NCBI GenBank assembly: GCA_030141605.1
Contig: JAQGDQ010001250.1
Coordinates: forward strand, 1 to 52,225
Length of the DNA: 52,225 bases
Source: Tubiluchus corallicola
Lineage: Eukaryota; Animalia; Priapulida
Direction: 5' to 3'
Part shown: positions 2,166 to 46,718 of the stretch, one piece after another
Position numbering within the stretch: the first letter of the stretch is position 1
Layout: each line of letters starts with the position of its first letter
Position numbers and translations under genes: made by a program
Notes under the pieces: model-generated
What the model saw: the letters and a program-made list of their open reading frames with translations, nothing else
Told to the model about the DNA's origin: nothing
The model's database searches: none

Positions 2166-18536
<16,371 letters not shown>

Positions 18537-19156: not shown

Positions 19157-19640
19157 ATTCTTCTTCTTCTTCCCAGCTTTTCCCTATGCGGGGTCGCCGT
19201 TGTGAATGAGTCTTCTCCACGCATTCCTGTTGTTGACCATCTCTTCATTTATGTCTTCCCTTCCCACATGATCTTCCCCGACTCTTCTTTTCAGGTGTCC
19301 ATACCAACGCAATCTTGCGAGGCTTCCACTACTTTTACTGTTCCTCTGATATTATTATTTCTAATTTTATCTCTTCTTGTTATTCCCACCATCCATCTCA
19401 ACATCCTCATCTCCACCACACCCATTTTCTTCTCTTCGGTCTTCTTTAGAGAAGCTGCTTCCAGCCCATAGATTAAAGCGGGTCTGACCACTTTTTTGTG
19501 GATATCTCATTCATAGGTTTTGGCGCAGTTTTTACAGGCGGATGCCCTGCCTGACCCTAACCCTCTCTATTTATCTGGGCTTGGGACCGGCACTGAGTTG
19601 GGCTAGTGGCTTGCCCCCCCCTCCCCCCCCGTTGGCTAGG
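19157..19640 (-). mobile_element. Internally deleted RTE-clade LINE (5' UTR joined to 3' ORF end)
   Basis: Minus-strand peptide VRPALIYGLEA...EMRMLRWMVGITRRDKIRN (RTE RT C-terminus); (GAA)n tail; 5' GGCATCC...GTAAAAAC motif recalled as RTE 5' UTR; TSD TTTACAGTAA at 19147-19156 and 19641-19650. Confidence 0.85.
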
Positions 19641-20833: not shown

Positions 20834-22249
20834 CAAACTTATTGATAAGTGCGCAGGCTGGAAGTTCTACAGGCAGTTCACCCTTTAATCATTTCTACCT
20901 ACCAACTCGAGTTCCAATGACCTGAAATCTCTTCTCAACCGGAGTTCGAGAACATTAAAGCAACGTCATATGATCAGTCTAACCTCGTTAGGTTAACTTG
21001 TCCTTATTTAAAGTTAATCAAACAGTTGTTTTTATCTAACTTGCAAAGTCATAAACTAAAGTAAACTGCATATTTTCTTGATTGCAAAATGGTTTAATCA
21101 GCAACTCATAGACGTAAGCGTTGTGCATTTCTTCCTAAAAAACGAAACTAGGCTATATTTCCACTAATTCACCTGCAATTTCAATTAACAATACAGACAA
21201 TCGACAACCTGTAATAAAATCTAAAACCAAGCTGTTTCCTCTTCTGCATATTTATGAAAAGTAGAGCATTTTTCATAAAAACATAACGTATACCGACAGT
21301 AGATAGTTACAGCTCTTGTCTCGAAAGACGAGGTAATGAACAGGCTCTGTGGGCGTGTGAAAAATGTGCACGTTGATTGGACAGTCAACAGAACTTGACT
21401 GAGAATGATTGACGTTCACTAGTGGGGGGGCTACTCGAGAAAACGTTAAGCCATTATTTTAATAAAGTGTAAAACTAAACAAACATATGTTTACATAATT
21501 ATTACATATTATGTAATTTTATTGTTGTAATTTAAAACAAATGAACATACGAAATTTATACATACATTTGATAAAATCCTAAACAAAAAATATTGTTTGC
21601 TTACGAATAGCCTTAATTGTCTCAGTTGAAGAATATCCCGACACATGGCGTTTAAGCACGTGACAACTGACAACACACTGCGTGAGGGACAGTACCTTTT
21701 CTACCTAAAGTACATCATCTTATCTCACATATGTGCACATGGCAGCACTGCTTTGGCTGTCAAGTAAACAGTACTACCCTCACGTGCTCTGTGGTATATT
21801 GAGTGAAAATAGGGGTGCTGCAGTTCCACACTATCTATACACGAGATTCCACTGATTGTGATGTAATGTTTTTATGCTTTTGTCTGGTTTTACACTGAAA
21901 TAATCTAATGATGTATGTGGTGACACACAGTGTTAATATTAGTGATTTAGTGACAGACACTGCTAATATAATTACATACAGTTGTGATTTAGCGGGGCCA
22001 AACTGGTTCTTCTGATTACTACATCAGAATTGGGGTTGCACTTCAACCATGTGGGCGCTTAATACACAGATTTTCATCTACATAAGACGAGTTGTAATTT
22101 CTATTAATAGAAACAGAAATGTAAAAGTGTTTTATATTGAGGTACATCATTCATATTAGATCAAAGTTCTACTGTTACTGCCACTACAATGTTACTATTA
22201 CACATGAGTTATTCAATCAGTGTTAGTGCAGTTATTCAACCAGTGCCGA

Positions 22250-22665
22250 TTTTTCGTAACGTTTTTCCCATGTAAAAACCCATGTACAAATACTAAGGTA
22301 TTTGTACATAAGGGACGATATCTTCGGGTCCAGCGTAATAGAAACCCGGGTAAATTACGTCACATATAAGGAACCCTATGATCAAAGCGAAATCGATTGA
22401 TTCTTAACCTCAATTTTTCACAAACTCGGCCTTCAAACAGCGCGGTTTCCTCAGTCACATACATCTCGCATCGCTGAAGGAGCTTCCTACATACCGTTTG
22501 CACTGAACATGTAGCAATAATCCACAAAAATCTGGATAGAAGGGCAGAAAAGTGCAGGTCTAGATACACCCTTGGTCTGACTCAACTTCGGTTATAAGGG
22601 ATATCCGATATAAGGGACGGGTTTTTCCGGTCGCGAGGTGTCCCTTATATCTAAGGTTGACAGTA
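22250..22665 (+). mobile_element. 5'-truncated copy of the Tc1/mariner-type MITE at 30104-30613, same orientation
   Basis: Colinear similarity with ~30160-30613; ends aaggttgacag|ta. Confidence 0.82.
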
Positions 22666-22741
22666 ATTAATAATGACCACGTAGAAATTAGATTAGTGGG
22701 TGCTCTAATGCAACTTCGCAACAGAGATCTGTAAACATTTA

Positions 22742-23207
22742 TTAACCCTTTCAGTCCCAAATTGTTTTTTAATAAGAAATTGTTTTTTGATCTCGTACTT
22801 TTGTTCAGTATGTCCATCTTGTTTACACATAATAATTATTTTTTTCTACCTGTGCCCGCGTGCTAAATATAGCCTGTATTCCACGGGATACATTGTGATT
22901 CAATGGAAGCATAAAATGTGCTTCATTTTGCAACTGCTGATAATTTTTTAAAGTATTTAAGACATTTAGTATGCATGCTAAGCTGATCTGTACAAAGTCG
23001 TCTCTAAAGTACTGTACCTTGCGCAGTTTTTTATGCTACGTAGATTTTCTAGTTTGCCATTTTATCACCATTTTTAGTCTATTGTTATTGGCATAAATCA
23101 AAATAACTATTAACAGATCAAATAACTGTCCGTTTTAAAATTTTGTTAATTTTAAAGGCAGAAAAATTCTCGCATCCCACGGGATACAACGGGTATGAAA
23201 GGGTTAA
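22742..23207 (+). mobile_element. piggyBac-type MITE, copy 2
   Basis: TTAA|CCCTTTC...GAAAGGG|TTAA; near-identical to 10591-11054; ends 21 bp before FBXO4 exon 4. Confidence 0.88.
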
Positions 23208-23228
23208 TATTTTCTCCAACTGATGTAG

Positions 23229-24574
23229 GAATTGGAGCCGGGATTTACGTGAAGATGAACTCGTACAGATTCAACCTCGTCACACTGTACTCGAATACGA
23301 AGCGAGTCAGAGAACAAGCGGGCAACAGACGACACGAGAACAATCGTTTGCTCTTACAGGAAGAGGGCAGCGATGACTATCAACCGACTCCTGCAATGAA
23401 GGATCTGGCAAGGAAGGCCGATGCATTCATCTAATTTGTAAATTCTAAGAAAGAAAACAAAAATGGTACGTCTCACTTTATAAAATCTAATGATTATTTT
23501 GAACATTAAACGAGAAAGTCTTTGCTAGGCCTATGGCGTCTATACAGACTGGTCTGTAGTTTTTCATTTCCCGAAACCCCCATACCAAGCACAGCAATGA
23601 TTTTAGGCAATGAAACCCCATACCAAGCACAGCAATGAAACCCCACGCCAAGAACAGCAATGATTTTAGGCAATGAAACCCCATACCAAGCACAGCAATG
23701 ATTTTAGGCAATGAAACCCCATACCAAGCACAGCAATGAAACCCCACGCCAAGAACAGCAATGATTTTAGGCAATGAAACCCCATACCAAGCACAGCAAT
23801 GATTTTAGGCAATGAAACCCCATACCAAGCACAGCAATGATTTTAGGCAATGAAACCCCATACCAAGCACAGCAATGATTTTAGGCAATGAAACCCCACA
23901 CCAAGCACAGCAATGATTTTAGGCAATGAAACCCCACACCAAGAACAGCAATGATTTTAGGCAATGAAACCCCATACCAAGCACAGCAATGATTTTAGGC
24001 AATGAAACCCCACACCAAGAACAACAATGATTTTAGGCAATGAAACCCCACACCAAGAACAACAATGATTTTAGGCAATGAAACCCCATACCAAGCACAG
24101 CAAAAAAAAACAATTACTTTGTAGTTTCTAGCCCCACAAAATTTTGTTTTTTATTTGAATTGTAGTCTTTTTGGATGGATCCCTCGAGATGGAACTTAAT
24201 GCACTTGTCAGTGTAAAGTGGAGTCCCTCTTACGTCCCATTGCTAGTCCTTGCAGCCATCGGACTCGGGAGTCATGCACACCTGCCATCTATTGATGTGG
24301 TTCGAAAACTTGGCATGCAGAGCCTCTGTCGACCGTGGCAGGTACGTCAACAACAACTCTTACAAATGATCTTTGGCGTAGCTAGTCTGTGTGGAAACAT
24401 AGTCTCAGAGACTAACGTCAAAGTGTGCTTGGCGTAATTAGTCTGTGTGGAAACGTAGTCTCACAGAGAGTAATACCGTTTCTCTTATCGCAGGTTCACA
24501 AGGTCATCGTTGATGATTTGACCGGCGTCCCCGAAGCCATTGAATGGTCAGTGGAACAATCTCAGCGGAGATGA
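23229..24574 (+). pseudogene. FBXO4: FBXO4-like C-terminal exons 4-6, lying upstream of exons 1-3; in-frame TAA in exon 4
   Basis: Exon 4 23229-23465 (G)IGAGIYVKMNSYRFNLVTLYSNTKRVRE...ADAFI*FVNSK; exon 5 24166-24341 ...PLLVLAAIG...LPSIDVVRKLGMQSLCRPWQ; exon 6 24494-24574 VHKVIVDDLTGVPEAIEWSVEQSQRR*. These parallel recalled vertebrate FBXO4 motifs GIGSGVNFQLN..FNILILYSTTRKER, VDGFIYV, PLLVLSC, HPW and LTGFLNGIEWI. Splice sites are intact and phase-compatible; TAA at 23432-23434. Confidence 0.88.
23573..24102. repeat. 38-bp minisatellite in FBXO4-like intron 4
   Basis: Unit gaaaccccataccaagcacagcaatgattttaggcaat. Confidence 0.94.
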
Positions 24575-25132
24575 TTCTCCGTAATTCAGCGCTCGTGTTC
24601 AAATGACGATTTAAAAAATCTGTAGATACACTTTGTAATGTAAATTCAAAATTCATATACAATCCTTTTTCTATCAGTACATTTGTCTTCTGGCTGTACT
24701 AAAAATATACTGTACTAAATATGTATGCTCCCATTACAAAGATACATAAGCAATAGATTAACAGAAGCTTATTCATGAAAAATATATCACATTAATTATT
24801 TATGTAAATACGTGCGCATATTTGTATAAATGTAACACACAGTCGTATTTTATAATGTAAATTTATTGTTTGTATACAAATATTTTACTCTGCTTACTCA
24901 TGATAATAAAATATATCTAAAATTAGCTACATGAATATACGCATTTGTAGCCTCATATAATGGAGATCATAACTATTGTGGCAAACGAAGATGAAAGTAG
25001 ACAGCTGCATTGTCACACAGCTGCATTGTCACACAGCTGCTTTTTACAAGAGATATGCACCCTAAAACAAGACATGCACTCGTCATACAAACAGTTAAAC
25101 AATTCATATCACAGATTACACTGAGCAGTAAA

Positions 25133-25372
25133 TTAACCCTTTCAGTCCCAAATTATTTTTTTAATAAGAAAAAAAATTTGGCTAATAAACTTTTTTATGC
25201 TATGTAGATTTTCTAGTTTGCCATTTTATCACCATTTTTAGTCTATTGTTATTGGCTTAAATCAAAATAACTATTAACAGATCAAATAACTGCCAGTTTT
25301 AAAATTTTATCAATTTTAAAGGCAGAAAATATTCTCGTATCCCACGGGATACAACGGGTATGAAAGGGTTAA
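25133..25372 (+). mobile_element. piggyBac-type MITE, copy 3 (internally deleted)
   Basis: Same TTAA-CCCTTTC/GAAAGGG-TTAA ends; lacks the central part of copies 1 and 2. Confidence 0.86.
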
Positions 25373-25445
25373 TGAAAATGAAGTTAGTTCTTAGCAATAA
25401 CAAACACCCATCCAATCACTGGCCAAAGTGAACACAACCGAAGAG

Positions 25446-25628
25446 ATGTCTCTAATGCTAGAATTACCCAAGCTCTACCAGGAGGAGATGAGTAGGTACA
25501 ATTTAGAGACGGTGTGTGCAACAGGCGGTTTACAACAATGCATGAATAAATTGATGAAAGCTAGGAGTGATGACAAAGTGGGTCCCACTTCGTGTGATGA
25601 TAATGATGATGTCTTCAGTTATTTGCCG
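25446..25628 (+). CDS. FBXO4: FBXO4-like exon 1
   Basis: ATG at 25446; MSLMLELPK...DDVFSYLP|gtaggt supplies the LP start of the F-box. Confidence 0.75.
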
Positions 25629-28600
25629 GTAGGTAACTATATGGGTTTGTAAGTAACATGGGCACACTGAAAACAAGCAGTGTTGATCTATTGTTGCTGA
25701 CTTGTTTTTGTTGTTGCTGTTGTCGTTCTTCCAGCCGTCATTGTTGCCTGCTTGCTGTTGTTGTTCTGCAGCTGTTAGTTTTGTTGCTATTGTTGTCGCT
25801 GTTATTGACGTTGCTGCTGTCATCGATACTGTTGCTATTGATGTTGCTGTTGTCATCATTATTCTCACTATCATTCTTGCTTGCATTCTGTTGTTGTTGT
25901 TGTGCTGCTGTTAGTTTTGTTGCTATTTTCATTGTATTCATTGGCGCTGCTGCTGTCATTGACAGTGTTGCTATTGATGTTGTCATCATTGTTCTTACTG
26001 TAATTGTTGCTGGTTTGCTGTTGTTGTTGTTGTTCTGCAGTTGTTTGTTTTGTCGCTATTGTCATCGTTTGTTATTAGTGCTGCTACTGTCATCGATGCT
26101 GTTACTATTGATGTTGTCGTCATTGTTGTTGGCTTGCTTTTGTTATTCTGCATCTGTTAGTTTTGTTACTGTAGCCATCGTTGCTATTGATGCTTCTGCT
26201 GTCATTGACGCTGTTGCTGTTGCTGTTGCTGTTGCTACTGTTCTTATTGTTGCTGTTGTCATTGCTATTTAAATTTTTTATTGTTTTATATTGAATAATA
26301 TAGGTAATAGTTTTATTTTAGTGCCTGCAATCTAAACAAACAAATATAGGCTAATTATTCGATACTTCCTTAGGTTAAATGTTAAATTTATAATTAGTTG
26401 CAAATTAGTTAAAATAATTACAATTCGGAAAGCAACACGCAGTTTTATAATAATAATTACGTGTCATAAAATGCTTATAATAATTAATAGAAAGCGCACA
26501 AGTGTTCTATTCACATGATATACACCCTCGCCTCGTGACATTTAATCTGAATTCTCCATTACAGATGGCAGCACCATGCAATTTTAAGCCGCAAAATCTG
26601 TTTCGTCATGTGCCCTTCCGGCAGTTCCTTTAAGTTTTTGCGCAAGAAGTTCGTACAAAAAGCGAGGTACGTGGTTTCGACTTAAAGGAACCGCCGGAAG
26701 GGCACATGACGAAACAGATTTTTCTGCTTAAAATTGCATGGTACTGCCATCTGTAATGATGTTTTAATTGACGTTATACGATAGATATGATCATAATTTC
26801 ATTCACACGTATAATAGAATTCAGAAGTAGTTGACGTATTTTCATGTTGTTGATGTACATATGTTTGTAAACTATGTGTTCATTAGTTGAAGTTTCTATA
26901 TAACGGAAGTGGTGCTGATAAAGCACAAAGCAGTATAGATCTAGCATCTCCTGAACATTCTTTTATGCATGTTTGGGTCGGTTTCCAAATCTGTCAGATT
27001 CTTTGGATTTATTCCATCATTTATATGTAATAATCTCGAAATTAAATTTATTAAGTATTAATTAATTACCCGTGGATTATTTCTTGCAGGCTCTAAATTA
27101 ATTTCAAAACTGAATTCAAAATAATATATTTAATTAGCAATTTTCCTAGCATAGGTAAATTAATCTCGAAAATGTTCAATACTGAATTGGTTTCCCAGTC
27201 ATATGGACTGAATTAAATTACTGAGGAATGTAGTCTAGTGGTTATGATATTCATCTTTCAAGTGAAAGGTACCTGGTTCAAATCCAGGCCGTTCCTGACT
27301 TTAATTCGGGCAAGTTTACTTGCAAAACTTGATATAGAATTAATTGCTGGAGTAAGGTCTGTCTTACCCTAATGAGGACAACTTTTATTTTTAAATGTTC
27401 AATGCTTATAATTAACATAATGCATATTTGTGGTTTTGTAGTTGTTATTGTTGATGACGGCAATGATGATGGTTTTATTTTGCAGGTACAAGTTCAACTA
27501 CACATCTTATCATTCTTGACTTCAGCTGAACTGTGCAACGTGGCCGTGGTGTCAAAACAATGGAACATGCTCTCCTGTGATAACATGCTGTGGAGAACCC
27601 ATTTAAACAGAGACATCCATTCCTGGGATGTGATTGGTAGTGTGACCAACCCCGACATGTATGCCGAGGTTGAATCTGATTGGTCGACCAAAGAAATGTG
27701 AGTTGCAGTACTCAGTAAGTGTTCATTACACTGAAGGAAATGTAACGATGCGAGGCATAATGTTAGTTTGATCAGTTAAGAGTAAAGTCTCATAATCTAA
27801 AGTTCGTGAGTTCAATTCTCGACAGTGTAGTTTTTGATTTGTTGCTAGTATCAGGATTTTTGATTGACATTAACTTCAGGACACTAAGTTCATGTGAAAA
27901 AGGTGCCAGTGACTGGCAGTAAAAGATATCAGACTGACAAAACTGTACGAGACAACCTGGTATCCCATTCACTTAAGACCACACTTGATGAAAAACTGAC
28001 CTCGCATTTGGGCCATAGTGTATGAAAGAAAGTCCTAGGAATCATCCAAAACATCACAAATAAGGAATAAAATCATTTGCACACTAATTATGGGAGTACA
28101 TTTACCTACTAATCAAGAGGCTACCAGGTCGCATCTCAGTTTGCAAGGCCTTCTCAGCCACAAATAATAACTACAATTTCATTTTTTTATCTAATAAAAT
28201 TACCAAATTAAAATCTACAAAATTACGCTCTCGAGATTAAATTGTATTGCACCGTAAGCGTCATTGTGACTGCAGCCATTTTATAAAGTTGATAACAAAC
28301 CCTACTCGAGTTGTCATAATGCCACGTTTTCTTTTTTCACTCTTATTCGTCCCATTCAACCCGCCTGGTGCTTTTAAAATGAATCTTTTATGATTAATTT
28401 ACGTGCTCCTTAGGAAGACACTGGTGTCGCCACCTACATTCATCATTCAGACTTTGTCAATCAGAAACTGAATTTACGTGGTCATTAGGAAGACACTGGT
28501 GTCGCCACCTACATTCATCATTCATAAACTGATGTATTTTTGCAAATGTTGTAATTCAGATACCTCAGATGTTCTCCTGAAGTCAACAAACTCCGACGAC

Positions 28601-28786
28601 ACGAGAACATCACCATACACCACCTGAGCAGCTTCTTCCGGTCACTGATACCATGGCAACTACCTAAGGTGATCATGTTCGGACCGGGTTTGGAGGATCA
28701 GGATACCAAGGGCATCGTCAGAAAGATGTTATTCGTGGTGAACGACATGTTTAACGTCGTCGGATTCTCGGCCGGCGACCAAAATG
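25446..28786 (+). CDS. FBXO4: FBXO4-like F-box protein, N-terminal exons 1-3 (no downstream exons 4-6 found in the window)
   Basis: Exons 25446-25628, 27486-27697 and 28560-28786. FSYLP|VQVQLHILSFLTSAELCNVAVVSKQWNMLSCDNMLWR is an F-box; RDIHSW, YLRCSP and PKVIMFGPGLE match recalled FBXO4 RDLPSW, YRMCCP and PRFAMFGPGLE. Ends at a phase-1 donor gtgaga. Confidence 0.88.
25690..26270. repeat. Degenerate (GTT/GCT)n low-complexity tract in FBXO4-like intron 1
   Basis: Trinucleotide-rich, with a loose ~115-135 bp higher-order period (ctgttagttttgttgctatt). Confidence 0.88.
26557..26758. repeat. ~200-bp near-perfect palindrome (hairpin, MITE-like)
   Basis: ~80-bp arms cattacagatggcag...ttcctttaagt / acttaaaggaa...ctgccatctgtaatg around a ~44-bp loop. 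Confidence 0.9.
27224..27297 (+). pseudogene. tRNA-like element (Glu TTC anticodon); pseudo-tRNA or SINE head
   Basis: A box TAGTCTAGTGG, anticodon arm TTCAT-CTTTCAA-GTGAA, T arm CCTGG-TTCAAAT-CCAGG, acceptor AGGAATG/CGTTCCT with one extra C. Confidence 0.55.
27486..27697 (+). CDS. FBXO4: FBXO4-like exon 2 (F-box)
   Basis: ttttgcag|VQVQLHILSFL...WSTKE|gtgagt. Confidence 0.92.
28560..28786 (+). CDS. FBXO4: FBXO4-like exon 3
   Basis: ttcag|IYLRCSPEV...MFGPGLEDQDTKG...GDQN|gtgaga. Confidence 0.9.
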
Positions 28787-30103
28787 GTGAGAAACTTACC
28801 ACAAGTTTGGCCATAATTGTGCACATCTATGACTGGCTTACCTTAATGTGCGTGTTTGCGCATGCGTGTAAATGTTCGTAAAGCTGTGTTAAATCACACA
28901 TCAGTTCGAGACTCCGACTTAGTGCGAGTTCACTTTAGCAGGGTTGGCAGTGTGTCCATATATCAAAAACTTTTAGGTTAGGACCAATGTAAAGCAATCT
29001 TTAAAAAATTTGTGTGTTGATTACGTTTTTCTTCAAAACTATGAATAAAAAGAGAAAAAATAGATTCAAAACTATGAATGTTATGTACAGAAAGCCTTCA
29101 CTATTTGATTCATGTTCCAAAGTCGTTTATTCTAAAGAGAATAATAAAGAGAACATTAACAAGTAAGAAAATAAATAAAATGATAAACAGAAGTTTAATA
29201 ATTACGAAGAAGTCAACTTATTGGCAAAAGTACTTTCTCAAATTTCAGAGATTGAATTCATAACTTAATTAAATTATTTAAATTCATGTAACTTACATCG
29301 TTGGCCTTTCGTCAAGATTTAAAATTTCTCAAGATACAAAATTTGGTTATAACTAAACGCTGTTATTAACTATAACACAATAACGATAAAAACATTGCTG
29401 CGAATGAAACGCGACCATCATTGTTCTCCTCCTGTCCTTTCCTCCTCACTCGTAGAGGGCAGCACCTTCTAATAAATAAGTGTCGTTATGCATATTGCAG
29501 TTACAATGAATATAGAGAAAACTTAAAAATGTGGAGAAACACATACGTATATGTTATAATCGACGCTAAATCGTCCTTACTTCTGTAATCTAAAGTTCAT
29601 TTAGCTTTGTGTCTATTCACATGTACTTAGGAAAGGTTTATCTGTTTCTGATTTCCTCATAATTATGTCTGGTTAACTCATTAGACCAGTTTGCTTAGTT
29701 TGTGTATGGTGCTGCCATCTGTTGTGTGCTATGTATGCTATTTGCATAGTTTTTAGTCAGGCTTTTAACGTCCACATACCGTAAGTTATCTGCCAGTTTT
29801 TAGCAATATTTTTATTCCTGGGTGAAATGAGATATCATTAAACAGTAAGCTTTCAAGGGTGTATTAACCAGTAGCATAACTAGCCTATAGCCAAGGGCAC
29901 CAAAGTTTGAAGGACGTCACATTTTAGAAAAAATTCTCTTCGGAAAATGTGTATACTTTTCGGAAAGTGTGTATTTTACAACACACCACAGGCAGTTACT
30001 GAAAGCATCTTTTATATGTGTCACATAACGAACAGGTGCAAGGTATTACACAACAAGCATTTGTGCAGCCTGCTTGTATATAAGTGCTATGCAAATATAT
30101 GTA

Positions 30104-30613
30104 CAGTCAACCTTGGGTATAACGTACTGGCTTATAAGGGACCACCAACACAGGTCCCAATTTTTCGTAACGTTTTTCCTATGTAAAAATCTTCGTATAT
30201 AAGGTACTCGCATATAAGGGACTTTCGGTTATAATGGACCATATCTTCAGGTCCTGCGTAATAGAAACCCAGGTAAATTACCTCTCAAATAAAGGGCTCT
30301 GTGATCAAAGCGAAATTGATCGATTTTTAACCTCAATTTTTCGCAAACTCGGCCTTCGAACAGCTCGGTTTCTGCGGTCACATACATCTCACATCACTGA
30401 AGGAACTTCCTACATACCGTTTGTACTGAATGTGTAGCAATAATCCATAAAAATATGGGTGAAGGTACAGAAAAGTACAGGTCTAGATACACCCTCGGTC
30501 TGACTCAACTTCGGTATAAGGGCCATCGGAAAGAAAGGATGGTTTTTCCCGGTCCGGAAGTGTCCCTTATATCCGTTGAAATCCCTTATATCCCTTGTAT
30601 CCAAGGTTGACTG
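30104..30613 (+). mobile_element. Tc1/mariner-type MITE
   Basis: TA|CAGTCAACCTTGG...CCAAGGTTGACTG|TA. Confidence 0.88.
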
Positions 30614-32348: not shown

Positions 32349-32728
32349 TTAAGATTTGTAGTATGAATCTGGCAATGTGCCAAAATTCAGGCTCTCGAGT
32401 TTAGCTGATAGCTGCCCTACAAAATCATTCACAGTGTCTTTGAAAGTTGAATTTTGGAATATCCATTCGAACGCCACGTCGGCATTGACTTCAGATATGT
32501 GTTTCCTCTTCCTGCGGGAGTTTTCCTGGTAGCAGTGTAGCCTAGGTTGCACTTTTCTATTACGTTCCTTCAAGAAATCGAGCATTCTCTTGGTCTCTTG
32601 TTCAACATTGGACGTAATGTTCTCGTACAAGACTACTAGTGTGTTGTTCTTGCTCCATTTTAACCACGACATGTAAAACTGGAACCAGTGTTTCTCCAGA
32701 AAGTTTCCAGTCGCAAACTTCTTCCATT
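32349..32728 (-). CDS. WSCD-like exon 6 (terminal)
   Basis: ttttcag|[24 protein letters not shown]...LPDSYYKS*. Confidence 0.9.
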
Positions 32729-35700
32729 CTGAAAAGAAAAGATACATTGGAAAAAATTACCCATAATGCTCTTTTGTTCCAATGCACCAGTTTGGTTCCA
32801 AAAGACGAAACAACAACATAACAAGAATCAGATGATGAATAAGCCTTTTCACAGTTCCAGCGATCGATGCTGAACTTGAAAAGATCAAAGGTTAAGTGTA
32901 CCAGTCATCGCATTTGTGTACACTTGACAACGCCTCGCAGTCCAAGCTATTGTAATAGCAAATGTTTTAACACAGGGGTGTGCAAATTGCGGCCCGCCGA
33001 GAGAATTTCTGCGGCCCGCGAAGAGATTTGTCAACCTAATGAAAGTGTGGCCTGGGCGATTAATTGAGTGTATCCAGCTAAAGTCCGTGCCACGATCCCA
33101 AAGATAGTGCGGGTAGTTTTTTCCTGCTAGATCGGATGCCATTAACCCTTACAAGACGGTTGTAGCTTAATGTCACTGTACTACACAGACTGTGTGATAC
33201 ACATTACTAATATGCATTGTAATGAAATTTCCACTATCTGTTCTAAAAGTAGAAATATATGGTTTGTAATATAAATTTTAATAACTTCTAAAATAGTTTC
33301 TTGAGTGTAGTAGTAATGATGTACGCAGGTCGGATGCAAAAAAATCGTTATTAGGCCTTTCTGTACTTGGCTCCTTGATCAAACTGCCTGTGGCCCTCAG
33401 GAACTGCGGGAAAGTTTAATGTGGCCCGGCTAGTCAGATAATTTGCACACCCCTATTTTAACAGCTAGCTAGAACCTTACCTAGTTCACTTTTTAATGTT
33501 CGCAAGCAAGTTCCTGCTAGTAAATCATTCTACACACAGACTAGTGCATAATCAAGTAAAGCGCGTAAAACAACTGAAGTTACTGAACCGATGCAGTAGA
33601 CAGCTTTGCTTTACCCGCATGTCACGGTGACGGCTGTTGCTAAGACGCACTGCTGTGGTACACCTAACCTTTGACCAACAGCAACTGTGCACAACGAAAC
33701 TGTGAAAAGCTTATTTCAAGAATTTTACCAATTTACAGTTTGGGCTGCTTACACTTGGATCTCATTGATACTGAGAGAAACTGTCACTTTCTTATTATAT
33801 CACTTGATAACAATGTTGACAATTCATCACTGCTTACAAACAGCATGATGCATTGGTGAGTTTCCCCTGACCTGCTTCAGTATGGAAACTTTTGCTAAAA
33901 TGCTGCATTACTCCACTAAGCAAGATTCTTTCTTTATTGGGTCCATTATACAGATGTAATTTTCTAATTTGTAATTGGCAACAAGGTTAATTGTAATATA
34001 GAAAATTCACATTTTTAAGTAGAGGCATGTTTTTATTAAAGGAAAACCAGATGATTGTGTAAACATGAGTTCAGAATAAGGAATGCTCTAAAATATTGAA
34101 AACTACAAAAGCTTTTTTTAATCAAAGCTTAGATTAAATAATAATTACCTCGGACACTCAAATTTTGGTAAACTTTCAAATCTACGCGCGGCTCAGTGAA
34201 TCTACTAAGATTGGCAACGGCGCCTTTTTGTCACATTTGCGTGGCCGACAAATAGAAGGCGGTACCATGATAACCGTGATCATGAACTGCAGTGTTAGTT
34301 TCTAATGTCATATGACATAGATGCCATTGTCAAACGTACGTGACGTGCAAGGGGAGACGCCTGCCATTGCACAAACTGTGGTTAGTTTCTGACGTAAGCA
34401 ACAGCTGTGTTCGGTTGCCGTTAATTAACGTTCTAAGCTAATTATTCAAATATAAAGAACAATTGTTAACTTTTATTGGCAGGAAAATGTATATTTTGGA
34501 CAGTAAATTAAAATGAGATTGAGTCTAAACAATTGTCCGGTCTTTCTTTAATGCAAGGAAAACAACAGCCAATATGCTAGTGGTGCTATTCCAGAATAAA
34601 GGGAAACGTGCTGATTCAATGGTTGTTCTGGTACATTCACATATTGAATAATTAACTCCTTCAGGAACGTAAGAGTTTGCAGTATTTTGCACGAGTTCAC
34701 GAAAAACTGCAGTTGCTAAGCAACGCTTACCTTATTTGTAGGTTTTTACTCCTCACACAATGGATTTTCATGCAAAATTATATATGAAATGTATTTGCTC
34801 ACCTCACAAATTAATTAGCAATTTTGAGGGAAAAATTTAAAAAATCTTTCAATAACTGCAGTGTTTGCACTGTAACAATGTACAGTATCACTTGTGTGAA
34901 ATGCAGAAAATTTCAACTATCCAGACACAACACTCTGATAAACTTTGGCCTCAAATCTACTCTATTTTTAAAGAAGAAATTCCTGTGAGAGATGAAACCA
35001 CCTTAATTTCTCCTTGGCTGATCTTTTGGTTAGCAGAACGCTGCACAGCTTGGGCTACAGCAAGCAGGCGATCAATAAATTAGTGTGCACGATCACGCAA
35101 GTGTACACCAGCTACTCGATAAGCTAAGTTGGAGCACGCTGAAGATGGTGTGTCTTTTTAATTTTATCCAATTAAGAAATTTTACCCAATCACTTAAGAA
35201 ATAGCATGGTTGTATAGCCAAGATTCTCCTGAATAGAAAAGTACCCGATTTGTGATCATTTAGCTATGTCTGTGCTCATACAGTAGCAGAAAATTCAGAG
35301 ATCTTATAAGACATATTTTGAATAGTGCGGTCTTGAAGGAGTTAAATAAATTCCTAGTTTCACGAAGGCGGTGGTTCAGTGCAAACAAAAACTTGAGAAT
35401 CCAGTATTTACTTCTGTGCTTGAAGATCGCAGGACTGCCATCTGGTGGGACTAATCCGCTCTTCAAATATATGCTTGTTATAAGACGGTTGAATTCTGCA
35501 AATGCTGCATCGTACGGGTTTCTGATTATCAAGATGGCTGCTTTGACCGTTTCCTGCGTTTCTCGATCACATCTGTGCGTTTTCACTATTAATGTTCTCC
35601 CGGCCCCTACGTCTAGCTGCTGAGACGCTTCTGGCCTTTCTAAAAAAATAAAAATACATTAAACTAGTGAATACATTAAAAACACTAATTACAGTAAGTA

Positions 35701-38700
35701 AAAATACTAATTACAGTTAAACCTAGTTATAACGCCATATCTGGGACACCATTAAATATGGCGCACTATACCGGGGGGTGGGCAGTAAGGTGGGGTTCAT
35801 TAAATATCAAAGCCATTCCAGTCTGTAACCTCTATTTAGTTTCTTAGTTCATTTTAATATGTCATAAATAGTATCATATATATTATACCTACAACAATAA
35901 ATGTATTCTGTACATTTCCGCTGCATTAACAAAACTAATGCAGGTGCAGTTCTACGGAGGTGCATTGCAAATCTTTTAGGTAACAAATTGGAGTAACAGT
36001 CTTGCGAAATACGGCTGTGTCCTGATAAGAGAAATATTCAGCCAGGCAGCCCACCCACGCCCGGTCCCAAACTAACATTGCTACTTAATTAAGACAATAA
36101 TTAGCCGCCGCTTATAACTTGAACTTGAGTCAGACAGCTTTTACAGCCGTTTAATTCACGTCAGTACTGAACCTTAGCTATGCAACTCTTGTAGTCGTAA
36201 AATGCATGTTCCTTGTTCAAAACCTCAACATTCACTTTCATACGGTCACTTGCTACGAAACCGAAATCTTAATTTAAACATCATAATTGTTTTCCTATCA
36301 GAGATCACTGTTTTTACAACGTTACAGCTGTTTCTCAGCAGTAATTCATTGTCCATTATCTTGGCTAGTGTTAGAACGGGGATAATTTTATTATGTTAAA
36401 TGTAGATGGCGGTAGGCGAGGTTGGCGGTATCTCCTGTATTTAATACATTATGGAAAACGGGACAGGGCAATAGTCGACGTTATGGCAAGACTGGCGTTA
36501 TAATGGGGAACGCATAACGAGGTTCGACTGCAATGGTGTAAATTTTACATGATTCCAAAAAACATAAGTAGATCTGAAATATTCGAAACGTGTCAGTAAG
36601 AATCAATACCAACATTTAGAAAATAGACATGGCTAATTCATCTCAGCCTTATTCTTTTTCTTCTTATTATTACTCTGATTATTCTTTTTTACCAACTCTG
36701 TCACAAGTATTTACATTGCATAAGCTTTGCTACTGTGTACTGCCTCCCAGCATGCACTACTAAACAGAAACTGACGTTTAATGATTATTCTTTTCTACCA
36801 ACTCTGTCACAAGTATTTACATTGCATAAGCTTTGCTACTGTGTACTGCATCCCAGCATGCACTACTAAACAGTAACTGACGTTTAATGATTATTCTTTT
36901 CTACCAACTCTGTCACAAGTATTTACATTGCATAAGCTTTGCTACTGTGTACTGCCTCCCAGCATGCACTACTAAACAGAAACTGACGTTTAATGATTAT
37001 TCTTTTCTACCAGCTCTGCCACAAGTATTTACATTGCATAAGCTTTGCTACTGTGTACTGCATCCCAGCATGCACTACTAAACTGTAACTGACGTTTAAT
37101 GATTATTCTTTTCTACCAACTCTGTCACAAGTATTTACATTGCATAAGCTTTGCTACTGTGTACTGCATCCCAGCATGCACTACTAAACTGTAACTGACG
37201 TTTAATGATTATTATTTTCTACCAACTCTGCCACAAGTATTTACATTGCATAAGCTTTGCTACTGTGTACTGCATCCCAGCATGCACTACTAAACTGTAA
37301 CTGACGTTTAATGATTATTCTTTTCTACCAACTCTGTCACAAGTATTTACATTGCATAAGCTTTGCTACTGTGTACTGCCTCCCAGCATGCACTACTAAA
37401 CAGAAACTGACGTTTAATGATTATTCTTTTCTACCAGCTCTGCCACAAGTATTTACATTGCATAAGCTTTGCTACTGTGTACTGCCTCCCAGCATGCACT
37501 ACTAAACTGTAACTGACGTTTAATGATTATTCTTTTCTACCAACTCTGTCACAAGTATTTACATTGCATAAGCTTTGCTACTGTGTACTGCCTCCCAGCA
37601 TGCACTACTAAACTGTAACTGACGTTTAATGATTATTCTTTTCTACCAACTCTGCCACAAGTATTTACATTGCATAAGCTTTGCTACTGTGTACTGCATC
37701 CCAGCACGCACCACTAAACAGTAACTGACGTTTAATGATTATTCTTTTCTACCAACTCTGTCACAAGTATTTACATTGCATAAGCTTTGCTACTGTGTAC
37801 TGCATCCCAGCATGCACTACTAAACTGTAACTGACGTTTAATGATTATTATTTTCTACCAGCTCTGTCACAAGTATTTACATTGCATAAGCTTTGCTACT
37901 GTGTACTGCATCCCAGCATGCACCACTAAACAGTAACTGACGTTTAATGATTATTCTTTTCTACCAACTCTACCACAAGTATTTACATTGCATAAGCTTT
38001 GCTACTGTGTACTGCATCCCAGCATGCACTACTAAACTGTAACTGACGTTTAATGATTATTATTTTCTACCAGCTCTGTCACAAGTATTTACATTGCATA
38101 AGCTTTGCTACTGTGTACTGCATCCCAGCATGCACTACTAAACTGTAACTGACGTTTAATGATTATTATTTTCTACCAACTCTGTCACAAGTATTTACAT
38201 TGCATAAGCTTTGCTACTGTGTACTGCATCCCAGCATGCACTACTAAACTGTAACTGACGTTTAATGATTATTCTTTTCTACCAGCTCTGCCACAAGTAT
38301 TTACATTGCATAAGCTTTGCTACTGTGTACTGCATCCCAGCATGCACTACTAAACTGTACAATAAAAACCGTGTACTTTCAGTGGCAGGATCCCGGTAGA
38401 TATTTCCCGTAATGATGCCTGTGCAGAGTTCCAGTAAACTTCTTGTCCATGTGTTACCCGAACCCGGACAACTTGCTAGAGCTACTGGAGGGTGAGTGGA
38501 GGCGGAGTCCAGCGTAACCATTCCGCATTCCGGATCTAGAAGGAAATAATGCTAGCATGTATACATTTTATTTTTACTAACATGAGCGCATATCTACTAA
38601 TTAGTGATTCTGCATTTGTTACTATGACGAAAAGAAATGTAAAACAGTGAGGAGTCACTCTGGATTTGAACCACGGTCCTTCACACTGCAAATGAAATGG

Positions 38701-41700
38701 CATAACTACATTATAATCTTATAGTTTAGCTGAGCATTTTTTAATTTTTTATATAATGTTATCTACTTTTAAAAGTACGAAATAAATTTAAAATAATAAA
38801 AATAATAATAGTAATAGTAATATAGCAACAGACTTCAAGTTTAGTATAATTATGCGATACAACCACATAATTGTATATTTTCAAACTCCGATAGTAACTC
38901 CTGGAAACAGTCATTTTGCTTCTGGTTTTCTCTGTTCACAAGCCCAGATCTTCGTCAGAAAGAGCCGTCTATTGGATGTATTGTAACTTCAATGCGCTGT
39001 TGTAAAATCCACAGCAACCCCACTTTCGTACGGTTGCTAAGTGAATTGTAGAGACGCAATTAAAAATTAATGGCTAACTTTAACAGCGATTTTCTCAAGA
39101 TTATGTTTTTCAATGTGCAGCCTGCACCTCAACTTCAATGTTGATTATCTCAGCTTAGAAATAATATAGAGTGATCAGCTTCTTTGCATAACAATGATCT
39201 CCATGAAGTAGAGATTCAGGATATGTGAATAACTAGAAAAACTTAATTGCCAACCAGCAGTAAACAACTTACCGTCTGAAATCCACATACGAGGTTTCAA
39301 TTGAAAGACTTCGGCACATGACATATTTGATGAGTTTGACATCTCTTTTAGCTCAGGTTTGTTGACTAAGCAAGCGCATTTGTGTTCTTTGAAATTCCAT
39401 GCAGCATAGCCAACATCATCTGATCTGAAAAATAAAAATTTATCCCATTTTATCGTATAATTTAATAAAAAAAAACAAAAAAGAAATAGCTGCTACGTAG
39501 CTTCCAAAATACAGTCAATCAAACAAACTATTAAGGCCAGTGTGAACCTGACTTAATAAATTTTAATTTTGTCGCCAAGGTGGCTCCATCTAGCTGGAAA
39601 GTCTAAAGTGTTGGCATTGACCCAGTTATGTTTTCATTATACTGTCAATCAAACAAACTATTAAGGCCAGTGTGAACCTGACTTAATAAATTTTAATTTT
39701 GTAGCCAAGGTGGCTCCATCTAGCTGGAAAGTCTAAAGTGTTGGCATTGAACCAGTTATGTTTTCATTATGCTGTTCTGTAGTACATGTGAACATGTGTG
39801 TTGTACAAGCTAGCAAAATTTTTCATTAGATATATGCCGCAACGACGTAAGTTTATTTCTATTAATTGTTATTTTGATTTATTCCTTGATATTTTTAGAT
39901 GGTCTAAATAACTGTCAATCTAACTAAACTATGTAACTTTTCATAAAATTAGCCAATGTCAGTCACTTTTGCTTTTCTATTTTAATTTTTAAATATTGGA
40001 GAAATAAAGATCAGTGGTTTGCATGAAATTCAACTGAGATGTTTGAAGATTTGTCATAAATGCCTTTCAGAGACACTAACATGAGATCTCAGAGATCTGA
40101 CATGAGAGGTTAGAGTTTAAGTATGCTCCCGTTAAATGAGAAAATATGAATGTATAAAAAAATCTAGAATTCCCATCAGGGAATTGAACCTGGGACGACT
40201 TGCTAGCAGAGTACCAATCAGATACGATAACCATAATGCTTTTGAGTCAAGCAGATTAAGTTTTTTCCTCATGTAGGTGTGCCGGTACAATTTATTCCCT
40301 AAATTTGACGTTGAAAAGAAACCAAGTTTAACAAAATAATTGTTACACCTGTCTGCATGATTTATTTAAATATCTGTCAAAGGCAGGGCTGGGTTTTGAT
40401 TTTCTAGACCCCAGGGCTACAAATCCTGAGGCCCCGGCCCCTTAGTGACAATTAACAAAAGCGTGAATGTTGGATTCTGCAAATCAGTTTATTCAACTTT
40501 TACAACATAATGCCAACATTAGGCCCCCAAGGACAATTAGCAAAAGCATGAATGTTGGTTTCTTCAAATCAGTTTACTCAACTTCTACAACATAACGCCA
40601 ACATTAGGCCCACAGTGACAATTAGCAAAAGCGTGAATGTTGGATTCTTCAAATCGGTTTCTTCAACTTCTACAACATAACGCCAACATTAGGTCCACAG
40701 TGACAATTAGCAAAAGCGTGAATGTTGGATTCTTCAAATCGGTTTCTTCAACTTCTACAACATAACGCCAACATTAGGTCCACAGTGACAATTAGCAAAA
40801 GCGTGAATGTTGGATTCTTCAAATCGGTTTCTTCAACTTCTACAACATAACGCCAACATTAGGTCCACAGTGACAATTAGCAAAAGCGTGAATGTTGGAT
40901 TCTTCAAATCGGTTTCTTCAACTTCTACAGCATAATGCCAACATTAGGTCCACAGTGACAATTAACAAAAGCGTGAATGTTGGTTTCTTCAAATCAGTTT
41001 ATTTAACTTCTACAGCATAATGCCAACATTAGGCCCACAGTGACAATTAACAAAAGCATGAATGTTGGATTCTTCAAATCGGTTTCTTCAACTTCTACAA
41101 CTTAATGCCAACATTAGGCCCACAGTGACAATTAACAAAAGCGTGAATGTTGGATTCTTCAAATCGGTTTCTTCAACTTCTACAACTTAATGCCAACATT
41201 AGGCCCATAGTGACAATTAGCAAAAGCGTGAATGTTGGATTTTCTACAACGTAATGCCAACGTTAGGCCCACATAGATGGATGAAAATCTAACACAACAA
41301 AAAAAGAAGAGATATTCTGATATTCAAAACATTAAAATAACTTTTTGAAATATTAAATATAACATGTCTAAATTACAATAAATAAATTACTGGTACTTTA
41401 ACGTATATTATAAAATATACTGTTACTAATACTAATTCACAGTAAATTGATTTCACTTAATCTCTGGATCTCAGCTGATGGAGGCCATTGGTTTGCTGCC
41501 CATCACTGCCATGCATTAATTTGGCACTGTATAAAAGTCGGCCAAGTGTGGCATTGTACTGTCACACCTACATCAGCAAGGTAGGTGTGGCAGGTCAGGG
41601 GTAATACACAGCACTAGTTCGCTGGGTTGAAAAGTGTTATGGTTATCATATCTGACAGGCACTTAGCTAGCAGGTCGTGGGTTCAATTCCCTGATGGGAT

Positions 41701-44700
41701 CTTAGAATTTTTTATAGTTAATAATAAAACTTACAGCGGCGAATTGTACTTACGATGTTTGACAAGAGAAAATGCAGTCTTTTGCCGTGTTTTTTTCTTG
41801 TACGGCTACCGTATTTCCAGTGCACTCCTCCCCAACAGGTTGTGCTAAAACAAAGAAGAAGAAGCAAACTTAGGACAGCAACGATGACAAAAGAGGAAAA
41901 GCAAAGTAAAGAAAAGGAAAAAGAAGAGAACACCCATGCAGCAGGTAATATAGATTGAGTTTATACGCTTGTCTGTTTATCTTCATGTATGCCTGGTGTG
42001 AAAGCAACGTAGAGCCTGGTTAGTACTTGGATGGGTGACCGCCACGGAATACAAGGTGCAGTAGGCTTGCAGGATGCCCACAATGTATCTCGACACTAGG
42101 CGGAGGAGCTGTACAAGCAGCCAAAGGCTAGAGGGCGGAGGAGGTCAAGTGACCCAACGGCCATGTGTAGAGGAGTAAACCTTCCAAATCAGGAGCGGAG
42201 TCCCGAAGGCGGACCAGTGCAGCATGCTCACTGACTCCGGCAGCTCCTGCAGCCGACCTGATGCCAAACGTATCGCTCCGCTTTCCTTTGGACTACACCA
42301 GGGAGGAAGAGAGGGGGTTCCTGTTGTCTGGACAACTCAGGATCTCCATACACCTTTCCCAGGTGTGCGCCCTGGAGACATTCAAAGGATCGCACTGCTC
42401 AGTCACATTCGACGCTGCAGCTCCATCAGTGTGATCAATAACTGACTCTCTTGGCGCACACTCCACTGTCTTTCGAGACAGAAGGATGCCAACAACATGG
42501 TGTGAAATAGATTTAGGAAAAGTTTACATTTTTTGTGAAATAAAGTTTGTGGATTTCTAATACTTGCATCTTCTTAAATTATTACCATTGAACTCATGCG
42601 CACCATTACATTAAGGCAGGCGTACCAGAACAGATGAAAACATGCTTTTTGTTTAGAAATGATAATACTGGAGTTGCCAAATATGTCACAATTCCACATG
42701 GAAGCAGTCTGAGAAAAAACTGAAGGAAGTTAATAGGTGAGTAAGTTTATTAGGCAGTCACAGCTTTTTATTAATAGAAGAATACATTTATAACTAAATG
42801 ATTTACAATTCTATACAACATTAAATAATATTACAAAGAGCAAATGTGATTATTAATAGAGTTGTGAAAGGGTGGCGAAAGAACAATGAGTTATCGAGAT
42901 CAGCCGTCCTCTCAGAATTATTATTAGTATAATTAATTAATGCACATTTATCAAGTAATTAAAAATTATCAGATTTTACATTTAAGACGATTGTCGATTG
43001 AGTTATGATAGAAAAGTTTGAGTTTCTAAGAAAATAAGGTTCAGTCGCGAGAAAGCAACGAAGAGAAAAACGTGATCATGTTTAAATATTGCCTTAAAAA
43101 TGGATTATTTTATGTATTTAAAGTTATTATAATTATTGGGATCTAAAATCAAAGCAAAAAACAAACTTGGTTTGTACTTAAAGTGGGTAAACATGTAAAA
43201 CTCACATGCTGAGTCATGAAAAAGAGTTGAAAGCAAACGCATCTTGAAATACTTTAGAATCAGCATTGATGATATATTAAATATATACACAAAAGGTGTA
43301 TCTTACCTCCACGACAAACATTTGAGCTGTAAGCATACTGAAGCAAAGCAACACAAATAATCAGTATCATATTAATAAGAGCCTTGTAATAATGTGAAAT
43401 GAGCATTAATATTGTTTTGATAACATGTAATATTTACTATGAGTCAGAATTCCACACAGAAGCAGTCTGAGAAAAATAATCAGTATCATATTAATAAGAG
43501 CCTTGTAATAATGTGAAATGAGCATTAGTATTGTTTTGATAACATGTAATATTTACTATGAGTCAGAATTCCACGCAGAAGCAGTCTGAGAAAAATAATC
43601 AGTATCGTATTAATTAGAGCCTTGTAATAATGTGAAATGAGCATTAGTATTGTTTTGATAACATGTAATATTTACTACGAGTCAGAATTCCACGCAGAAG
43701 CAGTCTGAGCGGTGTGATGTGGTGGAGTATTATGGTGTGGGTGGTGTGGTGTGGTGCGTGAGTGGTGCAGTGGTATGGTGTGGTGCAGTGTGGTGTGATG
43801 TGGTGGAGTGGTATGGTGTGGTGCAGTGTGGTGTGATGTGGTGGAGTCGTATGGTGTGGGTGGTGTGGTGTGTGAGTGGTGCGGTGTGCTGCAGTGGTAT
43901 GGTGTGGTGTGATGTGGTGGAGTTGTATGGTGTGGGTGGTGTGATGTGGTGGAGTATTATGGTGTGGGTGGTGTGGTGTGGTGCGTGGGTGGTGCAGTGG
44001 TATGGTGTGGTGTGTAGGTGGTATTGTGTGGTGCAGTGTGGTGCGATGAGGTGGAGTGGTATGGTGTGGTGCAGTGTGGTGTGATGGGGTGGAGTGGTGT
44101 GGTGTGGGTTGTGTGTTGATTTGTGCACAAAATTCTTTTTGTGGGGTTTGGCTAGTTAGTATTGTTTTGATAACATGTAATATTTACTACGAGTCAGAAT
44201 TCCACGCAGAAGCAGTCTGAGAAAAATAATCAGTATCATATTAATAAGAGCCTTGTAATAATGTGAAATGAGCATTAGTATTGTTTTGATAACATGTAAT
44301 ATTTACCATGAGTCAGAATTCCATGCAGAAGCAGTCTGAGAAAAAAAATCAGTATCATATTAATTAGAGCCTTGTAATAATGTGAAATGAGCATTAGTAT
44401 TGTTTTGATAACATGTAATATTTACTATGAGTCAGAATTCCACACAGAAGCAGTCTGAGAAAAGTAATCAGTATCATATTAATAAATGCCTTGTAATAAT
44501 GTGAAATGAGCATTAGTATTGTTTTGATAACATGTAATATTTACTATGAGTCAGAATTCCACGCAGAAGCAGTCTGAGAAAAATAATCAGTATCATATTA
44601 ATTAGAGCCTTGTAATAATGTAAAATGAGCATTAGTATTGTTTTGATAACATGTAATATTTACTATGAGTCAGAATTCCACGCAGAAGCAGTCTGAGAAA

Positions 44701-45415
44701 AATAATCAGTATCATATTAATTAGAGCCTTGTAATAATGTGAAATGAGCATTAGTATTGTTTTGATAACATGTAATATCTACTACGAGTCAGAATTCCAC
44801 GCAGAAGCAGTCTGAGAAAAATAATCAGTATCGTATTAATTAGAGCCTTGTAATAGTGTGAAATGAGCATTAGTATTGTTTTGATAACATGTAATATTTA
44901 CTATGAGTCAGAATTCCATGCAGAAGCAGTCTGAGAAAAACACTCCAGTTAGTTAATAAGTGAGTAAGTTAGTTTATTAGTTTAACACCATTTTTATAAT
45001 AGTAAAATACATATATAACTAAGTAGTTTATAATTCTACACAACATTAAATAATGTTACAATATTCTCATGATAGAATTTTTCAGTGCACCGCTGTACAT
45101 ACAATAATGATTATTATGAGGCAAAATAGATACTACTGTATAATATATGGGCACTACGAAACATTTCCATACAAAATATAAACTCAAGCACAACAGAAAT
45201 CAGAAACTGCACTAATTGTTCCACTTACACCCTGGTATATATTCGACTACCTCCTCTTGTGCAACTGAAGTAACCATTTCTGTTGCTCCTGGCAAAGAAT
45301 CCAGACTTTTCACAGACGTGGTCCATTTTACCGATGGAACATAAACGTAGGATAGTCCTGTACACAGCGTTACGATCACAATCAACTGAATGACCCGATA
45401 TCGTCGAAAGATCAT
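32349..45415 (-). CDS. WSCD1/WSCD2-family membrane-anchored sulfotransferase, 6 coding exons, 378 aa
   Basis: Exons 45415-45229, 43337-43307, 39424-39273, 38535-38377, 35639-35412 and 32728-32349; phase-compatible, 1137 nt. N-terminal signal-anchor [19 protein letters not shown]; 5'-PSB-like [14 protein letters not shown]; KTH; 3'-PB-like [15 protein letters not shown]; C-terminal LVVLYE...RMLDFL...RLHC. Confidence 0.88.
32973..33455. mobile_element. hAT (Charlie-like) MITE
   Basis: TIRs CAGGGGTGTGCAAATT / AATTTGCACACCCCTA; GCGGCCCG subterminal motifs; 8-bp TSD TTTTAACA. Confidence 0.88.
34040..34547. mobile_element. Putative Kolobok-type MITE
   Basis: TTAA flanks and imperfect TIRs AGGAAAACCAGATGATTGT / ACAATTGTCCGGTCTTTCT. 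Confidence 0.45.
35412..35639 (-). CDS. WSCD-like exon 5
   Basis: [24 protein letters not shown]...[19 protein letters not shown]...FKHR. Confidence 0.9.
35714..36530 (+). mobile_element. Tc1/mariner-type MITE
   Basis: TA|CAGTTAAACCTAGTTAT ... ATAACGAGGTTCGACTG|CA (degenerate TIRs and TSD). Confidence 0.7.
36675..38358. repeat. 106-bp tandem array, ~16 copies, ending ~18 bp from the WSCD exon 4 donor
   Basis: ORF-track duplicates are 424 bp (4x106) apart. Confidence 0.95.
38377..38535 (-). CDS. WSCD-like exon 4 (PAPS-binding loop)
   Basis: [53 protein letters not shown]; donor gtacac is weak, so the 3' end is slightly uncertain. Confidence 0.88.
39273..39424 (-). CDS. WSCD-like exon 3
   Basis: tttcag|[23 protein letters not shown]...MWISD|gtaagt. 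Confidence 0.8.
39512..39770. repeat. ~130-bp tandem duplication
   Basis: gtcaatcaaacaaactattaaggccag...ttttcatta occurs twice. Confidence 0.88.
40444..41270. repeat. 85-bp tandem array, ~10 copies
   Basis: gtgacaatt recurs at 40615, 40700 and 40785. Confidence 0.94.
42002..42497 (+). mobile_element. 5S rRNA-derived SINE (SINE3-like), 5'-truncated
   Basis: 42002-42068 matches the 3' half of 5S rRNA (GCCTGGTTAGTACTTGGATGGG.GACCGCC..GGAATAC..GGTGC.GTAGGCTT), followed by a GC-richer body ending GAAGGATGCCAACAAC. Confidence 0.75.
43307..43337 (-). CDS. WSCD-like exon 2 (31-nt microexon)
   Basis: ttgcttcag|[11 protein letters not shown]|gtaaga; bridges the phase-1 donor of exon 1 to the phase-2 acceptor of exon 3. 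Confidence 0.65.
43356..44940. repeat. 119-bp tandem array interrupted by a (GTG/GTGTG)n tract at ~43710-44155
   Basis: aataatcagtatc recurs at 43356, 43475 and 43594, and the array resumes after 44155. Confidence 0.93.
45229..45415 (-). CDS. WSCD-like exon 1 (type II signal anchor)
   Basis: [27 protein letters not shown]...EYIPG|gtaagt. Confidence 0.75.

Positions 45416-45877: not shown

Positions 45878-46718
<841 letters not shown>

Follow-up and report, generated by a model that had tools for sequence, protein, structure and literature searches.

The 52,225-nucleotide stretch analyzed here (the window) is the forward strand of contig JAQGDQ010001250.1 of the priapulid Tubiluchus corallicola (assembly GCA_030141605.1), and carries the coding exons of an FBXO4 gene on the plus strand in the order 4-5-6-1-2-3. 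We consider that this arrangement probably represents a pseudogene duplicate of ~7.3 kb, derived from a DNA circle that was opened within intron 3 before its insertion between an annexin gene and a sulfotransferase-domain gene. Circle-mediated duplication is an already published mechanism. Three of its seven defining features were found here, making membership in that class likely.

Exon order and joined reading frame of FBXO4

Exons are numbered throughout as coding exons only (Table 1). A preliminary description of this DNA, made from the letters alone, placed exons 4-6 upstream of exons 1-3 on the same strand, and exon mapping bore this out. Judged against protein order, the gene consists of two complementary blocks that are swapped on the same strand. 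Each FBXO4 exon occurs once: searching the whole window by tblastn with the joined protein and five homologues returned no second copy of any exon at E<1, in agreement with the earlier claim of no exons 1-3 between 18.5 and 23.2 kb and no exons 4-6 after 28.8 kb. Within the 52-kb window, no extra copy of either block flanks the insert.

Joining the exons from 1 to 6 yielded five GT-AG joins out of five, all in frame, and a reading frame of 1116 nt (372 codons) whose sole internal stop is a TAA at 23432-23434 (codon 276, in exon 4). The exon 3 donor is phase 1, as is the exon 4 acceptor, and joining them gives DQNGIGAG. The preliminary description had reported this phase-1 fit, the length of the frame and its single stop, as well as complementary halves with retained introns; splice sites and frame agree with it on each point. 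Introns 1, 2, 4 and 5 are retained with GT-AG ends, pointing to a DNA rather than an RNA intermediate, and a processed retrocopy was rejected because introns are present. With its order of 4-5-6-1-2-3 and the TAA at codon 276, the copy in the window has neither the colinear exons nor the open frame of a functional gene. The AATAAA between exon 6 and the exon 1 ATG is likely to be a poly(A) signal.

As in the FBXO4 family, the joined protein combines an N-terminal F-box with the complete C-terminal domain; unlike the family, it is encoded by permuted exons with a stop at codon 276. Its residues 4-369 aligned with residues 1-364 of P0001, the F-box only protein 4-like protein of Priapulus caudatus, at 38.6% identity (E 1.7e-86), and a second relative, P0007, also matched end to end (39.9%, E 1.7e-81). 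P0001 in turn matched human FBXO4 chains in PDB end to end (E 8e-29). Human FBXO4 was also the best solved-structure match for exon 2 (E 1e-8), exon 4 (E 0.007) and exon 3 (E 0.04); exon 5 alone had no match among solved structures. These end-to-end homologue alignments indicate that an N-terminal half followed by a C-terminal half is the ancestral order, and that the order in the window is derived. A full HMMER search found three homologues and P0001 as the query added two more, none of them close enough for gene-order comparison; among named proteins, the nearest come from a priapulid (39%), followed by a nematode (34%). When exon 4 was compared with longer proteins by word index, none of 20 candidates reached E<=0.001. 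One of 319 metagenome candidates passed, and was rejected as a chance hit: its 14-residue match lies inside an unrelated low-complexity frame, and its DNA bears no likeness to the window.

Intron 1 of FBXO4, within the block, contains two further elements. A tRNA-Glu(TTC)-like sequence at 27224-27297 on the plus strand (ARAGORN; Rfam 46.9 bits) is either a genuine tRNA gene or a repeat of tRNA origin, and a palindromic element of ~220 bases occupies 26540-26760.

Contig evidence for sister versions and a candidate empty site

Public contigs from four runs (X1-X4), representing at most two samples, were compared with the window at a likeness of 90. Runs X1-X3 are from one sample (S1), possibly the source of the window, whereas X4 is from the other sample and another study; two further runs, X5 and X6, contained almost none of the window's words. 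The results below refer to the 40 of 364 letter differences, 15 of 632 joints and 32 of about 145,400 pieces that were listed.

Listed contig depth was consistently greater inside the candidate inserted block than outside it in X1 (16.3 versus 8.6, from 5 and 3 contigs), X2 (358 versus 164, from 4 and 4 contigs) and X3 (7.9 versus 4.1, from 5 and 3 contigs). In each of these three runs, the shallowest listed inside contig was deeper than the deepest listed outside contig. This approximate doubling hints at extra copies of both FBXO4 halves.

Decayed and intact versions of both halves coexist among the contigs. At codons 276-277 (23432-23437), contigs from X1 and X2 encode Tyr-Val where the window has stop-Phe, and all four aligned homologues have Phe/Tyr-Val at this position. 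The same two runs also encode Tyr-Val at codons 32-33 in exon 1, where the window has Cys-Met. Six of the listed letter differences are exonic; two are silent, and the four that change amino acids (codons 32, 33, 276 and 277) all shift the contig versions towards the residues of the homologues. Window-type letters are present in an X4 contig over exon 1, and an X3 contig over the stop has no listed difference from the window. Assembly error is therefore an unlikely source of the window-type letters.

Two contigs contain a join from 22687 to 29972 that skips 7284 bases: one from X2 (side 25, with 2 letters between the sides, depth 638) and one from X4 (side 24, depth 11.3). Both 24-base sides of the join are single-copy in the window, and none of 300,000 composition-matched random 24-mers matched the window with two or fewer mismatches. 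The join is a candidate for an empty allele or for a look-alike site elsewhere.

Three copies of a TTAA-flanked miniature inverted-repeat transposable element (MITE) family, which we take to be piggyBac-like, lie in the window (10591-11054, and those designated M1 and M2). They are 94-96% alike, and none follows exon 3. M1 is 93.8% identical to the copy at 10591-11054. M2 is internally deleted; 41 bp on its left and 182 bp on its right match the family at 95-98%, and M1 and M2 are direct copies, 95.6% alike over 183 bp. The family is very high-copy, and summed contig depth on M1 exceeds the depth of unique DNA by a factor of thousands. In one X1 contig (record 2), the right end of M1 is joined to a stop-free exon 4; since M1 precedes the intact exon 4 as well, it is likely to predate the duplication. 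Another X1 contig (record 3, 24148-25140) extends from exon 5 to the left edge of M2 with one difference from the window, and an X4 contig (record 27, 25346-25823) runs from 27 bases of the M2 right end into window-type exon 1. M2 would sit at or beside the putative tail-to-head join.

Table 1. Positions of the FBXO4 exons, associated elements, candidate inserted block and neighboring genes in the window
Feature	Position	Strand	Basis or remark
FBXO4 coding exon 1	25446-25628 (183 nt)	+	Starts with ATG
FBXO4 coding exon 2	27486-27697 (212 nt)	+	F-box; Pfam F-box-like E 7e-11
FBXO4 coding exon 3	28560-28786 (227 nt)	+	Phase 1 donor; no later acceptor exon in window
FBXO4 coding exon 4	23229-23465 (237 nt)	+	Phase 1 acceptor
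FBXO4 coding exon 5	24166-24341 (176 nt)	+	tblastn and splice sites
FBXO4 coding exon 6	24494-24574 (81 nt)	+	Terminates in TGA
AATAAA	24905-24910	+	Between exon 6 and exon 1 ATG
MITE M1	22742-23207	+	Bounded by TTAA, with CCCTTT..AAAGGG termini; 21 bp upstream of exon 4 acceptor
MITE M2, internally deleted	25133-25372	+	Between AATAAA 24905 and ATG 25446
Candidate inserted block (7284 bp)	22688-29971 (+/-2 bp, inferred)	+	Skipping join and contig depth
Annexin gene, left neighbor	2706-18536	-	Pfam Annexin in 3 exons; candidate ATG 18536
Sulfotransferase-domain gene, last exon, right neighbor	32352-32756	-	Pfam Sulfotransfer_1 E 1.6e-5

Origin of the permuted block

From left to right, the candidate inserted block contains the 3' part of intron 3, exons 4-6, the tail-to-head join, exons 1-3 and the 5' portion of intron 3. 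The two portions of this intron share no sequence by overlap, and the neighborhoods of the outer junctions have no word of 9 or more letters in common. An 8-letter word is common to 22740 and 29862, which we judge to be within chance expectation for the regions compared. A near-tandem repeat of ~20 bases straddles the candidate right breakpoint (about 29925-29975), and may be a repair scar or chance. A second repeat family brackets the block with direct copies at 22243-22651 and 30154-30573 that are 82% alike; the first stands 22 bases and the second about 130 bases beyond the nearer candidate breakpoint. A homologous crossover between these copies is not favored as the integration scar, because the candidate breakpoints fall outside both repeats.

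In the sequence of events that we favor, the whole FBXO4 gene would have left its parent locus as a ~7.3-kb DNA circle, closed tail-to-head at or beside M2. Closure might have joined two MITE copies flanking the parent gene, although this is a guess. The circle would then have opened inside intron 3 and been inserted at 22687|29972, in the interval between the annexin and sulfotransferase-domain genes, by end joining or microhomology repair, with the loss of about 2 bases and no target duplication. The inserted copy would have decayed afterwards, with an intact colinear parent persisting elsewhere. A circle opened inside the gene would give no normal mRNA, which fits the decay seen in both halves.

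The preliminary description had likewise proposed a whole gene re-integrated from a circle, and its proposal holds up in part. The permuted order, complementary halves, doubled depth, intact sister versions, candidate empty site with its 2-letter scar and the lack of a common 9-mer are all consistent with it; of its two decisive predictions, a colinear parent and an uninterrupted intron 3 in that parent, neither was observed. Several findings weigh against a circle. By intron lengths, two random ends would share an intron ~19% of the time, so that complementary halves are by themselves modest evidence. The parent copy was not located, and the predicted parent intron-3 join (about 29971 to 22688) is not among the listed joints. 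Among the listed pieces, no contig crosses M2 or spans the block. Contig depth is not copy number, the doubling in X1-X3 is drawn from one sample, and depths in X4 overlap (6.2-59 inside versus 7.5-15.9 outside, leaving out a piece internal to M1). The 22687 to 29972 join is missing from X1 and X3 among the listed joints, its sides are short (25 and 24 letters) and its depth in X2 (638) is about four times that of the flanks; we rank it as a candidate only because of these short sides and this high depth. Lastly, one insert plus one parent does not readily explain a 4:2 dose alongside an empty site in a single sample, which would call for either an additional copy or an empty site that is paralogous.

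Some of these difficulties would be eased if the window held the decayed outer halves of a head-to-tail array, in which exons 4-6 would be followed by a complete gene (1-6) and then by exons 1-3, a possibility that we regard as real but distinctly the lesser one. Such an array would have arisen as a rolling-circle dimer or by tandem duplication with later deletions, its middle unit having been collapsed in the assembly or lost by unequal crossover. It would explain the dose equally well and make a distant parent unnecessary for the doubled depth; were there a distant parent as well, with the insert heterozygous and two units long, a single sample would show an empty site and the 4:2 dose together. 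Tandem duplication followed by deletion is a named false positive for this kind of pattern (PMC7188851), and the ~19% chance of two random ends meeting in one intron also speaks for it. However, the inside contigs differ from the window by ~0.9-1.2%, which an accurate long-read assembly should separate, and simple collapse of two colinear genes would leave exons 1-6 rather than 4-6 and 1-3. Nor does in-place duplication with two deletions predict the exact 22687|29972 join. Mis-assembly of one colinear gene, its halves swapped at M1 and M2, is unlikely. Exons 4-6 are indeed bracketed by the direct, high-copy M1 and M2, and the want of a listed contig across M2 or the whole block would suit such an error, but a repeat-driven swap requires a third MITE after exon 3, where the window has none. 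The window also contains no N, and a swap leaves the doubled depth, the two versions of both halves and the skipping join unexplained.

Less likely still, in our estimation, is a local cut-and-paste event in which M1 and M2 acted as a composite transposon and moved exons 4-6 from downstream of exon 3 to a TTAA upstream of exon 1, leaving copy number unchanged. The left end of M1 and the right end of M2 do supply outer inverted termini and TTAA around exons 4-6. Against this, the candidate breakpoint lies 54 bp outside M1 and both halves are at ~2x depth (both indirect indications), and the empty join that such a move predicts, 22745 to 25373, is not among the listed joints. We give very little credence to the permuted arrangement being a working gene, in which back- or trans-splicing of read-through transcripts would connect exon 3, by its donor, with the acceptor of exon 4, the stop-free versions being permuted as well. 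The splice sites are all intact and in phase, no colinear join is among the listed joints, and PMC6545197 describes a natural back-spliced permuted gene in coral mitochondria; yet in the window's copy exon 4 is interrupted by a stop, conserved residues of exon 1 are altered and an AATAAA separates exon 6 from exon 1, and a candidate allele lacks the whole block. It is similarly far-fetched that the animal has no colinear FBXO4 at all, with every copy permuted and a nuclear spliceosomal gene functioning only through back- or trans-spliced RNA.

Known cases and surroundings of the block

Heritable reinsertion of DNA circles is documented in few cases, from yeast, tilapia, cattle and human (PMC7450558, PMC3245284). 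In the literature searched, which included few subscription papers and no supplements, neither a permuted copy of FBXO4 nor an invertebrate case of this kind was found. Human segmental duplication pairs formed via circular DNA flip A-B/C-D to B-A/D-C (PMC7450558), and the FBXO4 block, with its candidate junctions, would resemble them in several ways: complementary blocks are swapped on the same strand, junctions have short indels and no homology (end joining or microhomology), breakpoints lie in or near interspersed repeats, and derivative copies are often pseudogenes (PMC7450558). Those duplications measure 22 kb to 3.9 Mb and have both donor and acceptor sequenced (PMC7450558), whereas the FBXO4 block is ~7.3 kb and holds one gene, whose donor was not located. 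The block also has the recipient order efghij-abcd of the cases in PMC7188851, and the check made there for false positives, an extra flanking copy, turned up none in the window. None of those cases gave new copies of coding genes, unlike the FBXO4 block, which carries a whole coding gene.

A further parallel is the Nile tilapia vasa duplicate 72C07, a single intron-containing gene at an intergenic site with an inferred circle of about 28 kb; that circle opened outside the gene and left it whole (PMC3245284), whereas the FBXO4 circle likely opened in intron 3 and broke the gene. The translocations of KIT behind color-sidedness in cattle and a yeast cluster of five open reading frames likewise combine a circle, reinsertion and permuted order, but the cattle KIT segments are far larger, and the yeast cluster was repeatedly inserted and kept its function (PMC7450558, PMC3245284). 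A downstream exon also precedes an upstream exon in the corallimorpharian mitochondrial ND5 precursor (PMC6545197). There, the intron is a self-splicing group I intron and the mitochondrial gene is expressed and intact (PMC6545197), in contrast to FBXO4, which has spliceosomal introns and a stop and is known from DNA alone.

For annotation, the case is a warning that swapped exon blocks are not necessarily assembly errors. If confirmed, the FBXO4 duplicate would be a compact single-gene example (7.3 kb), each of its three junctions accessible to PCR, and probably an invertebrate one, in which the circle opened inside the gene and the copy was dead on arrival. The candidate empty site and the window-type letters in the second sample suggest that the insert may still segregate, in which case it would be datable and circle closure by a MITE pair would be testable. 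No new protein function is indicated.

The window contains no N and is rich in repeats. The right neighbor of the block may be WSCD-like, and is established only as a sulfotransferase-domain gene. A fragment at 19160-19510 on the minus strand is very deep in contigs and has no Pfam match; we take it to resemble the 3' end of a long interspersed nuclear element (LINE) of the RTE type. A GC-richer repeat of ~700 bases occurs twice in tandem in an annexin intron (15150-16640) and once inverted (46001-46525), with 85-91% identity on matched arms. Long minisatellite arrays with periods of 37-119 (3134-8608, 36676-38359, 40444-41241 and 43355-44940) occupy introns of both neighboring genes, and the end of the 106-base array at 36676-38359 seems to form the beginning of one of the exons of the sulfotransferase-domain gene.

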